From positions 1-12,107 of the forward strand of contig RDOA01000073.1 in assembly GCA_011364925.1 (NCBI GenBank): 12,107 bases of DNA. The letters run 5' to 3'. The position numbers were made by a program, and so were the translations under genes. Below the pieces are notes generated by a model. The model was not told where the DNA came from. It did not search any database and saw nothing but the letters and a program-made list of their open reading frames with translations. Shown here in pieces: positions 5,621 to 9,999 of this stretch; within the stretch, counting starts at the first letter, position 1; the number at the start of each line of letters is the position of its first letter. This DNA is from Promethearchaeota archaeon. Lineage in GTDB: Archaea > Asgardarchaeota > Lokiarchaeia > Sigyniarchaeales > SOKP01.

Positions 5621-6082
5621 TTACAAATTGTTTATCGCTTTAAATTCAGAACCCCACGAAAATTTTGAGAGAATTAAATCACCATACACATCAAAGTGTG
5701 TAATATAGAGAGCGGCCGCTAACGCTTCTACAGAACTCAATTTCTCCCATTTACCAAAATTTACAGGATTTGCAGCAATAAGTGGAGGAAGCTTTCTACT
5801 GGTCTTCACACTAAACTCTTTTACATTAAAAATTCTTTTCCAAGAACAATCAATAACTACCAACCCATATTTTAAAATTGCATCTCGATCAGTAGCGCTT
5901 AATTCCTCGTTAGAAAACGGATTTAGAAGAATAGCATTAAAGATTTTTCCTTTAATTTCAGGTACAATCTTTATCAAATTTAACTTTGCTAACTTGAGAG
6001 CAGTGCATTTCTTCTTGTCACACTCGTTAAAATGGAGACAAAATAGTTTTGGAAAAGAGCGTTCTGCTTTAGGATTAATCAT
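5621..6082 (-). CDS. tsr3: Tsr3 SSU rRNA aminocarboxypropyltransferase (DUF367)
   Basis: CDKKKCTALKL, DCSW, LPPLIAANPVNFGK...LSSVEALAAAL and FSWG motifs characteristic of Tsr3. Confidence 0.93.
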   Translation of the reverse strand: MINPKAERSFPKLFCLHFNECDKKKCTALKLAKLNLIKIVPEIKGKIFNAILLNPFSNEELSATDRDAILKYGLVVIDCSWKRIFNVKEFSVKTSRKLPPLIAANPVNFGKWEKLSSVEALAAALYITHFDVYGDLILSKFSWGSEFKAINNL

Positions 6083-7073
6083 ATTTAAAACTAGTTAAAA
6101 CATTCACAGACTTAATAAAATTTTCCGTAATCCGTTCAGTTCCTACGATTTTCATTATTGAAAATATGATATTTCTCGATTCACACATTATTGGAATTCC
6201 ACCATATGCCAAAGTAAAAAGTCCAATAAAAGAAATATCTTCTGCATTCAAAGTCCCCTCTACTTCGGAGAATTTGAGTTTTCCCGATGGACTCGTAATG
6301 ATTCCAAAGAAATTCTCGGGATCTTTACCAGAGATCGCAATATAACACAACAAATCACCAATAGAAGTTCCTTCAGACTCCTCCTTCATTTTTTGAAAAG
6401 CTACATTAGCACTCGCAGAAAAAGCTTCAACGGATATTTGGAGATTTTGACCGCTAACCTCCCGTGCATCCAATGTTAAACCTGTCGGACTAACAAGACT
6501 ATATCTTATGAATATAGGATTTTGGAGCGAATCCAAAACATAGCTTATCGCCGGTAATTGGTTAGTAGGGTCAAATTTTTCAGGGGAATACGATATAAAA
6601 GGCACTTCAGACCCCATACCAAAAAGATAGACGGCACTTCGCACTTTATTCGAGAAATCTTCGTAATCTTTTTCTGTTTCGTTATTACTACCGAAAAATT
6701 CTCCAAGCTTTTGTTTTATGTAATACATAGAGCTGGCTAAATTGTCAGCATCTAACGGCCATTCTTTCGTATAATCGTGGACTATCGTTAAAAGTGTTTC
6801 ATTTATTCTAATCGAAATTAAACAAACCTTGTCAAAAAAGGTAAACGATATAACTTGATCTTTAATATCTAAATCTTCCCAACTTTCTTCGCTTGCTGAA
6901 AAAGCTGCTGAAGCTAAACTTGTAATTTGATTAGGATTGATCTCAATATCACTTTTCCTCCCGATCTTTGCGATAGAAAGTCCATTTAAATCGCATAATA
7001 TCACCAAAATCGTACCTTGAGACGCTCTCAAGATCGAAGTCAAATACTTTATTAACGAATCCCTCACACTCAT
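6075..7073 (-). CDS. Tandem Roadblock/LC7 (MglB/LAMTOR-like) domain protein
   Basis: Two repeats of the roadblock pattern helix-strand-'xxG'-strand-helix rich in small residues: 'LVILCDLNGLSIA...ITSLASAAFSAS' and 'YSLVSPTGLTLDA...VEAFSASANVAF'. Confidence 0.75.
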   Translation of the reverse strand: MSVRDSLIKYLTSILRASQGTILVILCDLNGLSIAKIGRKSDIEINPNQITSLASAAFSASEESWEDLDIKDQVISFTFFDKVCLISIRINETLLTIVHDYTKEWPLDADNLASSMYYIKQKLGEFFGSNNETEKDYEDFSNKVRSAVYLFGMGSEVPFISYSPEKFDPTNQLPAISYVLDSLQNPIFIRYSLVSPTGLTLDAREVSGQNLQISVEAFSASANVAFQKMKEESEGTSIGDLLCYIAISGKDPENFFGIITSPSGKLKFSEVEGTLNAEDISFIGLFTLAYGGIPIMCESRNIIFSIMKIVGTERITENFIKSVNVLTSFKYD

Positions 7074-7278: not shown

Positions 7279-7363
7279 GCGGGAATTGCCAAGTCTGGTC
7301 TACGGCGCTGGACTTAGAATCCAGTCTCAGAGGAGTTCGGGGGTTCGAATCCCTCTTCCCGCA
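7279..7363 (+). tRNA. tRNA-Leu(TAG), intronless
   Basis: Acceptor GCGGGAA/TTCCCGC+A73; anticodon stem CTGGA/TCCAG, loop CT-TAG-AA; long variable arm CTC-AGAG-GAG; T-loop TTCGAAT. Confidence 0.97.
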
Positions 7364-7495
7364 TATATTTTTTAGTAATAAAAATAATATTTTTTTAATA
7401 AACCAATTAAATCTAATTCTAATTTAAAAAAATTTAAAATCGAACCTTAATTAGTCTCTTCTATCAAAATTGCTTCTGTAGTGTAGTCCGGCCAA

Positions 7496-7525
7496 TCTTT
7501 CCCGATACGACTTAGAAAGGGCTTG
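7496..7525 (+). other. tRNA-Glu intron 1, position 21/22 (30 nt)
   Basis: Central helix GGCC(7490-7493)/GGCT(7520-7523), bulge AA^T, intron helix CTTTC/GAAAG, 3' site TG^G. Confidence 0.85.
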
Positions 7526-7551
7526 GCATACTAGGCCTTCACCCTGGTGAC

Positions 7552-7581
7552 AATATGGTTCGATGCGAACTGTATCATTAA
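7552..7581 (+). other. tRNA-Glu intron 2, position 48/49 (30 nt)
   Basis: Central helix GGTG(7546-7549)/CATT(7576-7579), bulge AC^A, 10-bp intron hairpin ATATGGTTCG-ATG-CGAACTGTAT, 3' site AA^C. Confidence 0.82.
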
Positions 7582-7658
7582 CCGGGTTCGAATCCCGGCA
7601 GAAGCACTACAGGCATTTTGCATAGGAATTGAAGAGGAGCCTCGATAGCTCAGTTAGG

Positions 7659-7686
7659 TAGAGCACCGCATCGGTGTGCTTGACAA
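7659..7686 (+). other. tRNA-Asn intron 1, D-loop (~19/20; 28-30 nt, boundaries ambiguous)
   Basis: Central helix GTTA(7653-7656)/TGAC(7681-7684), bulge GG^T, intron hairpin AGAGCACCG-CAT-CGGTGTGCT with one mismatch. A 10-nt direct repeat GTAGAGCACC also allows a 30-nt excision. Confidence 0.65.
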
Positions 7687-7702
7687 AGTAGAGCACCCGG
7701 CT

Positions 7703-7739
7703 TTGTAAAATCTTCCATGGATTTACCAATACACCGGAG
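7703..7739 (+). other. tRNA-Asn intron 2, position 33/34 (37 nt)
   Basis: Perfect central helix CCGG(7697-7700)/CCGG(7734-7737), bulge CT^T, intron helix TGTA/TACA, 3' site AG^G immediately before the GTT anticodon. Confidence 0.88.
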
Positions 7740-7765
7740 GTTAACCGGGCGGTCGCATGTTCGAT

Positions 7766-7797
7766 TTGCCATCTGGATTAGTCAGGTGATACGAAAA
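7766..7797 (+). other. tRNA-Asn intron 3, position 59/60 (32 nt), strict BHB
   Basis: Exon helix GCATG/CATGC, central helix TTCG(7760-7763)/CGAA(7792-7795), bulges AT^T and AA^C, intron helix TG-C-CATCTGG/TCAGGTG-A-TA. Confidence 0.9.
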
Positions 7798-8109
7798 CCA
7801 TGCTCGGGGCGTACATTCTTATCTTTTTTATAAACATAGATCTTTCCAAGCTGTAATTTCAACAAGGCTTATATGTTCTTTTTAATCTTCAGTTTTAAAA
7901 AATAAGAAGAAATATACGGTGTTATTAAAAAAACACCGAATTATGGAACAATCCCAGTTTCACCAGGCATTCTATTCCCTCCGATTAATAGTTAAAGGAA
8001 AATTTACTTTCTTTTTTATTTTAGAGTGAAAATGTTCAAAATTTAAGTGTTGCTTAATATTCTATTTTTATCGAATTATTTAAAGTCCGAAATTGTTAGA
8101 ATTTTTTTC

Positions 8110-9474: not shown

Positions 9475-9999
9475 TTAAGTTTGGTTAGCGTAATATATCA
9501 ACCACTTTGCCATGGCTTGAAACGATTCTTGTATATTAATGTTCTCTTTTGACGAGGTAAAAACACACTGATTACATTTAGCTTGAGTAGCGTATTCATT
9601 TGCGATATCGTAGTCAACTTCATGGTTAGCTAAGTCCCATTTCATTCCTAAGAGGATTATCGGGATAAAACCTGCTTTCTGACGGATAATTTTTAACCAC
9701 ACCGGTATCTCTCGGAATGTGTCGTAGTCTGTTATATCGAAACAAATTAATCCTCCACTTGCGCCTTTGCAGTAATCTGGTAAGAGTTCTCGAAAGCGTT
9801 TTTCACCGGCGAAATCCCATAATTGCATCTTTACGGACTCTCCGGTGTCAAGTAGTTCTGATTTCGTGTGAAATCCAGCTCCAATCGTCATTTTATAGCC
9901 TTCTTGAAATTTGCCAGTACAGTATCGAGTTACCATTGCGGTTTTTCCTACACCACCCGCTCCTGCTACAATTACCTTAAATATCCACGAACTCATCAT
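9475..9999 (-). CDS. Rab-like (Ras superfamily) small GTPase
   Basis: GAGGVGKT, TIGAGF, LWDFAG, RFRELL..YCKGA (RabF-like), GMKWD (G4), TSSK (G5); no C-terminal prenylation motif. Confidence 0.92.
   Translation of the reverse strand: MMSSWIFKVIVAGAGGVGKTAMVTRYCTGKFQEGYKMTIGAGFHTKSELLDTGESVKMQLWDFAGEKRFRELLPDYCKGASGGLICFDITDYDTFREIPVWLKIIRQKAGFIPIILLGMKWDLANHEVDYDIANEYATQAKCNQCVFTSSKENINIQESFQAMAKWLIYYANQT

Follow-up and report, generated by a model that had tools for sequence, protein, structure and literature searches.

Positions 7639-7811 of the window, by which we mean the whole 12,107-nucleotide stretch of DNA that was analysed, very probably hold a tRNA-Asn(GUU) gene of a Lokiarchaeia archaeon, present as a single copy and functional, from whose transcript three introns would be spliced out by EndA; both transcription and intron cleavage we infer here from the sequence. 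The window is one whole contig of a 3.9-Mb MAG (100% complete, 4.2% contaminated), and the host is an Asgard archaeon of the Promethearchaeota (Lokiarchaeia). In coordinates of the window, the gene and its neighbours are arranged as follows.

1-77: 16S rRNA 3' end
231-333: tRNA-Ala(UGC), after the 16S rRNA 3' end, with a 31-nt intron at about 30/31
7279-7363, plus strand: tRNA-Leu(UAG), intron-free, first gene of a Leu-Glu-Asn cluster that is also present in relatives
7426-7439, plus strand: A-run followed by TTTAAAA, a candidate BRE/TATA box picked out by eye about 35 nt upstream of tRNA-Glu
7472-7606, plus strand: tRNA-Glu(UUC), two 30-nt introns (21/22, 48/49), ending 32 nt before tRNA-Asn
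7639-7811, plus strand: tRNA-Asn(GUU) gene, 173 nt, three introns and four exons
7639-7657, plus strand: exon 1, tRNA positions 1-18 (acceptor 5' strand, D-stem 5' strand, D-loop up to G18)
7658-7687, plus strand: intron 1, probable site 18/19, 30 nt, relaxed BHB (alternative register 19/20, 7659-7686, 28 nt)
7688-7702, plus strand: exon 2, positions 19-33, 15 nt
7703-7739, plus strand: intron 2, site 33/34, 37 nt, HBh' motif
7740-7765, plus strand: exon 3, positions 34-59, anticodon GTT through T-loop
7766-7797, plus strand: intron 3, site 59/60, 32 nt, strict hBHBh'
7798-7811, plus strand: exon 4, positions 60-73, discriminator G73, CCA unencoded
7816-7829, plus strand: pyrimidine/T-rich tract 3' of the tRNA-Asn gene, a candidate terminator picked out by eye

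The tRNA-Asn gene and its genomic setting

Spliced forms were generated by enumerating BHB-like motifs and removing them in silico. A normal-length cloverleaf requires the removal of all three inserts, and once these were taken out ARAGORN called a tRNA-Asn(GTT), which bears out an earlier note on this DNA that had placed a 173-nt tRNA-Asn(GTT) with three inserts at 7639-7811. The mature product, in the 18/19 register, is 74 nt long, carries the GUU anticodon, G73 and the invariant nucleotides, and pairs in all of its stems; compared with intron-free orthologues (G128, G118 and G066) it shows 4-5 differences, of which four lie in the acceptor stem and preserve its pairing. Introns account for 99 of the 173 nt (57%), in keeping with the description of the gene as more than half intron, and the unspliced loop does read CT-TTG, the anticodon loop arising only once 7703-7739 is removed, as had been stated. 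The expectation that standard annotation would probably miss the gene was also correct, as neither ARAGORN nor Rfam called the tRNA-Asn on the unspliced window; the content of four candidate RNA runs was tRNA-Leu-like sequence only.

That the standard finders make no call at the locus could be taken to mean that it is a pseudogene or a chance arrangement. We regard this as hardly credible, for the exons are nearly invariant over 89 orthologues, every stem pairs, and the splice motifs are better than those of shuffled introns. Moreover, the check for another tRNA-Asn that the earlier note had proposed, made with ARAGORN, a motif search, Rfam and a splice-aware beam search, turned up no further gene in the genome, within a tRNA census (35 genes rebuilt) that is incomplete and leaves room for a second Asn gene that is more broken. 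An ARAGORN 'tRNA-Asn' on contig C91 was rejected, being a tRNA-Pro(CGG) with a 25/26 intron.

The rebuilt census comprises 38 introns, or about 1.1 per gene, a few single-intron boundaries being visibly misplaced: 10 genes have none, 15 have one, seven have two and three (Asn, His and Val-CAC) have three. Intron length in this genome (G000) has a strong mode at 29-31 nt (n = 38). Other genes with more than one intron include the following.

G000:C11:96994-97151 (L282): tRNA-His, three introns (22/23, 32/33, 45/46)
G000:C16:81712-81879 (L283): tRNA-Val(CAC), three introns (28/29, 44/45, 58/59)
G000:C64:8883-9032, minus strand (L281): candidate tRNA-Ile(UAU), two introns, with relatives L284-L291

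A tRNA-Ile(UAU)-type 5' half ending in CT-TAT-AA was seen in 18 family genomes, a looser sequence pattern for this tRNA having returned noise only. A search for the TiaS domain with one Pfam model, PF08489, gave no match in this genome and in 40 relatives and a match in four of four archaeal controls. This suggests that Lokiarchaeia may decode AUA in a eukaryote-like manner, without agmatidine, and a literature search on tRNA-Ile(UAU) or agmatidine-free AUA decoding in Lokiarchaeia found nothing.

As for the surroundings of the gene, tRNA-Glu and tRNA-Asn probably lie on the same transcript. In some congeners (L009, L011, L013, L021, L024 and L026) tRNA-Asn points the opposite way to the Leu-Glu pair and would therefore require a promoter of its own there. 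A sigma-70 promoter scan, inapplicable to archaea and giving chance-level counts, was set aside. In the tRNA-Glu(UUC) at 7472-7606, C replaces U at position 33, and C33 recurs in the rebuilt forms of tRNA-Leu(GAG) and of the two tRNA-Gln of this genome. Two minus-strand ORFs of the window were singled out by eye as candidates for a Roadblock/LC7-type-like protein (6075-7073) and a Rab-like small GTPase (9475-9999); Roadblock/LC7-type proteins and Rab-like small GTPases are typical Asgard eukaryotic-signature proteins.

Splice motifs and the register of the D-loop intron

All three introns show, in strict or relaxed form, the archaeal BHB arrangement of a 4-bp central helix with 3-nt bulges and a cut after the second nucleotide. 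Only intron 3 (59/60) is a strict BHB, with H TTCG/CGAA, a 5-bp h formed by the T-stem, an h' helix and cuts at AT^T and AA^C. Intron 2 (33/34) has an HBh' motif (H CCGG/CCGG, h' TGTA/TACA, exon helix absent; cuts CT^T and AG^G), and intron 1, taken at 18/19, a relaxed one, in which H AGTT/GACA comprises 3 bp and an A.A and the cuts fall at AG^G and AA^G. The earlier attribution of correct BHB geometry to each intron thus holds strictly at 59/60 and has to be loosened for the other two. When each intron was shuffled with its dinucleotides preserved, pairing of H and h' as good as that observed arose with p = 0.0001 for 59/60, p = 0.002 for 33/34 and p = 0.008 for 18/19, this last value having to be multiplied by about 11 because a 10-nt repeat permits 11 equivalent boundaries. 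In the ensemble of the full precursor, the 59/60 motif is the favoured fold (P about 0.8), the 33/34 motif is partly formed (H 0.64, h' 0.11), and the D-loop H helix has a probability of 0.06.

We compared the gene with a set of 89 orthologous tRNA-Asn genes from the family, a sample biased to intron-bearing copies because the query itself contained introns. Each insert is missing from some orthologues with precise junctions, and presence or absence is independent from site to site. On this sequence alone the boundaries of the D-loop insert are ambiguous, since its first 10 nt repeat the downstream exon, of which they are an exact copy (positions 19-28). Judging from the orthologous sequences, the intron is likely to be cut at 18/19 (7658-7687, 30 nt), and we placed it there because the 11-nt D-loop of a 19/20 product is absent from the orthologues and because repeat-free 18/19 junctions exist elsewhere. 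All 89 orthologues reduce to a tRNA of 73-74 nt with a D-loop of 9 nt (rarely 8 nt), and 23 other orthologous genes have an 18/19 intron without any junction-blurring direct repeat. The earlier note, which had the 33/34 (37 nt) and 59/60 (32 nt) sites right, had preferred 19/20 in the D-loop.

Use of the 19/20 register (28 nt), from which a 76-nt tRNA and an 11-nt D-loop would result, seems unlikely to us, even though it would offer a full 4-bp H (GTTA/TGAC) with 3-nt bulges, is better by 2 kcal/mol than the 18/19 form, retains G18-G19 in a product that ARAGORN accepts, and was also the choice of the splice-aware beam search. The resulting D-loop occurs in none of the 89 orthologues, and the apparent defect of the 18/19 form, a mismatch at the first H pair beside the 3' bulge, is the commonest relaxed form among the introns of the family, being present in 49 of 163 distinct introns. 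Slipped pairing towards 19/20 is possible in four relatives (G020, G005, G101 and G102) but would destroy G19, so that these must use 18/19. Local folds of the D-loop gave -11.0 kcal/mol for 18/19, -13.0 for 19/20 and -11.2 for 22/23, against -17.1 for a non-productive 7-bp helix, which is locally 4-6 kcal/mol stabler than any cleavable register; the G020 allele is unable to fold into this 7-bp helix. A nested arrangement, with a 22-nt inner intron at 22/23, was rejected, as the 8-nt remnant that it leaves would be too short for splicing, and the D-loop antideterminants for GatCAB were dropped as a register criterion because the host genome has an AsnRS gene.

Orthologous genes and the origin of the D-loop intron

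Introns per orthologous gene range from 0 to 5, and in this sample, biased as it is to intron-bearing copies, 46 of the 89 genes have three or more and six have none. The commonest sites are 59/60 (53 of 89) and 33/34 (49 of 89, with a compensatory TCGG/CCGA in three), followed by 63/64 (35), 22/23 (30, plus three misparsed) and 18/19 (24), while 37/38 is occupied in three. The three-site combination of the window is found again in G006 and in one G126 allele. Intron sequences diverge yet keep the motif, with compensatory H/H' changes (TCGG/CCGA, AGCA/TGCT), and AA precedes the 3' cut in 139 of the 163 distinct tRNA-Asn introns; together with the 29-31-nt mode this suggests a sequence preference at the 3' site. 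Because the intron set changes among congeneric species (0-5 introns), the tRNA-Asn introns are, by this comparison, labile at family level, not an ancient inheritance, and reflect gains and losses by lineages at a small number of permissive sites.

Several of the orthologues deserve mention in their own right. Nine relatives (L044, L046, L048, L052, L078, L079, L081, L082 and L103) have a 60-nt insert at 63/64 that is a nested pair, in which an inner 30-nt intron (H GGGA, 4/4 paired) sits inside an outer one, also of 30 nt, a single base ahead of the outer 3' site. The tRNA-Asn of G146 has five introns, counting its nested pair, and in that of G016 (L065) the 33/34 intron measures 53 nt, which exceeds its counterparts in relatives by about 20 nt and may mean another nested intron. 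Two MAGs, G009 (L004, L068) and G126 (L043, L275), each have two differing tRNA-Asn alleles, which may be either strain mixtures or true paralogues; of the G126 alleles, one has a 22/23 and the other an 18/19 intron.

The exact 10-nt exon copy at the start of the window's D-loop intron has no counterpart in the genome, where the next longest repeat of the downstream exon among the 38 introns is 3 nt and all other in-register exon repeats are likewise of 3 nt or less. A general copying or mimicry of the host exon by introns was rejected over the 38 introns (Fisher p = 0.99, none <0.05), and with it a GGTTCGA 'T-loop mimic' in tRNA-Glu (p = 0.07). There is homology between the 18/19 and 22/23 introns, with a mean best score of 25.7 against 16.6 when shuffled, unrelated site pairs scoring like shuffles; they have a common hairpin core, and one 8-nt indel separates the two alleles. 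A weaker relationship links the 59/60 and 63/64 introns. In the 22/23 introns, 5.07 of the first 6 nt on average agree with the downstream exon. Three genomes (G016, G028 and G008) carry both the 18/19 and the 22/23 intron, flanking a 4-nt exon, and on a one-gene tree 22/23 introns extend over six genera, among them the deepest branches for which a D-intron was assembled, as against two genera with scattered 18/19 introns.

A local duplication that shifted the splice sites by 4 nt would be the simplest account of the D-loop intron, its direction and mechanism being tentative. We give slightly less than even weight to the reading that local duplication within the gene turned an older 22/23 intron into the 18/19 intron, with splice sites moved 4 nt upstream, and, jointly with this, that the duplicated unit was either about 8 exon nucleotides or exon 16-22 plus intron, the window allele keeping the exon copy unchanged. 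The homology of the two introns above shuffles, the single indel between the alleles, the exon copy in the window, the likeness of 22/23 introns to the downstream exon, the double-intron alleles and the wider, deeper distribution of 22/23 all speak for it. Against this, the tree is that of a single gene taken from MAGs, and loss, allele exchange or binning noise could have scattered the 18/19 carriers and blurred the direction; 30 nt is the modal intron length of the genome in any case; the perfect repeat could be secondary, through recombination between 22/23 and 18/19 alleles; and exon-copying is not general in the genome, none of the 38 introns being significant. The fuller claim of a local intron gain, in which the 18/19 intron was made from the gene's own 22/23 intron and a duplicated stretch of exon, the exon copy being still unmutated in the window allele, we put forward as a tentative possibility. 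If it were true, then the tRNA-Asn of Lokiarchaeia, with the related 59/60-63/64 pair and the nested introns of the nine relatives, would be a natural series of within-gene intron multiplication.

The D-loop of the window could also be an assembly chimera of 22/23- and 18/19-type strain alleles, or a recent recombinant that splices poorly, and the gene would have three introns in this case too. Its 5' half is that of a 22/23 allele and its 3' half that of an 18/19 allele, the two meeting in a shared core about 20 nt long; it misfolds in silico; and the exact allele is unique, being present in one of 161 genomes of the class, in none of the other 160 and in no metagenome contig. Mixed populations do exist, as the paired alleles of G009 and G126 attest. 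We nonetheless consider this quite improbable, because the sole difference here from the G020/G005 allele is a 2-nt swap (GT vs TG) at the intron start, which mutation explains equally well, because usual assembly k-mers are longer than the shared core, and because both remaining registers yield a tRNA.

Predicted processing and relation to known multi-intron tRNAs

The host genome encodes a broad-specificity EndA and a ligase. Of two EndA paralogues, encoded on contigs C29 and C22, the alpha protein aligns best to the EndA of Aeropyrum pernix (E 3e-34), has a CSL/L1-loop lysine (K58 opposite K44) and intact catalytic Tyr/His/Lys motifs, and the second, which lacks the catalytic His, is likely to be a structural subunit; an RtcB gene is also present. 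The L1 loop allows cleavage of relaxed motifs and has been reported throughout Asgard archaea (PMC5829648). In the proposed pathway, a Glu-Asn precursor, probably one transcript with a 32-nt spacer, would be cut by a broad-specificity (alpha-beta)2 EndA at the three BHB-type motifs of tRNA-Asn and rejoined by RtcB. Segments of 30 nt (18/19), 37 nt (33/34) and 32 nt (59/60) would be released to leave the 74-nt tRNA-Asn, which would then be trimmed and receive CCA later. Since each central helix is contained in one exon, no order of splicing would be obligatory. The folding model nevertheless suggests that the T-loop intron may be removed first and the D-loop intron last, because the T-loop motif is preformed (P about 0.8), that of the anticodon loop partly and that of the D-loop hardly (0.06); the D-loop step would also be the slowest and the least precise. 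In C. merolae, the order of removal tracks motif stability (PMC3728597).

A three-intron tRNA whose introns are removed in order, as demonstrated by RT-PCR, has been described from C. merolae (PMC3728597). Like the present gene, it has one intron each in the D-arm, the anticodon loop and the T-loop, but it is a eukaryotic nuclear gene with its anticodon intron at 37/38 instead of 33/34, and there is no sign of a common intron ancestry. Thermoproteales tRNAs have a maximum of three introns, with intron transposition (review, PMC4033280). They resemble the window gene in their three non-canonical introns, relaxed BHB motifs and (alpha-beta)2 EndA with a CSL/L1 loop. Related introns recur there across tRNA types, whereas the relatedness that could be detected here concerns neighbouring sites of one gene (18/19-22/23 and, more weakly, 59/60-63/64), and relatives of this tRNA-Asn have as many as four or five. 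Earlier reports of nested tRNA introns in Thermoproteales were not found in our literature search, which did not extend to Sugahara et al. 2007.

Among Asgard archaea, three complete genomes have multiple introns in more than half the tRNA genes that they contain (2024, PMC11291895). A census of 90 Asgard genomes (Goswami et al. 2026, bioRxiv 10.64898/2026.10.13.758758) described up to five introns per gene, systematic misses in the D-arm and repeated independent gains by a route that it left unidentified; the mechanisms it put to the test were copying from one tRNA type to another, mobile elements and reverse transcription, and its text is silent on nested introns, sliding and within-gene tandem duplication, and its main text never names Loki-/Promethearchaeia. 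The present gene shares with the published Asgard tRNAs more than one non-canonical BHB intron in a gene, D-arm introns that annotation overlooks, a pair of EndA paralogues and repeated lineage-level gains. The published focal lineages, Atabeyarchaeia and Jordiarchaeia, differ in having 2.2 introns per gene, against about 1.1 per rebuilt gene here (38 in 35), which is close to the 0.91 of the census for other families.

Three-intron tRNAs are therefore not the rarity that the earlier note had supposed, as at least three introns were found in 46 of the 89 orthologues (in a biased sample) and also in the tRNA-His and tRNA-Val(CAC) of this genome, and up to five have been published for Asgard archaea. 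Its further suggestion, of a bearing on the origin of eukaryotic tRNA splicing, is weak: the sites of the window gene are 18/19, 33/34 and 59/60, the canonical eukaryote-type 37/38 intron being absent, and the intron set turns over among congeneric species.

As a three-intron tRNA, the gene adds little to a class already described for Thermoproteales, red algae and Asgard archaea. What it brings is an example from Lokiarchaeia, a group not among the focal lineages published so far, in which close relatives have 0-5 introns at single tRNA loci; it also shows that an essential tRNA of such genomes goes unrecognized by ARAGORN and Rfam. Beyond this, the tRNA-Asn is a compact substrate for how an Asgard EndA picks between competing relaxed registers, and its allele series, with two related intron pairs 4 nt apart, double-intron alleles and nested introns, is a testable case for the gain and movement of BHB introns.
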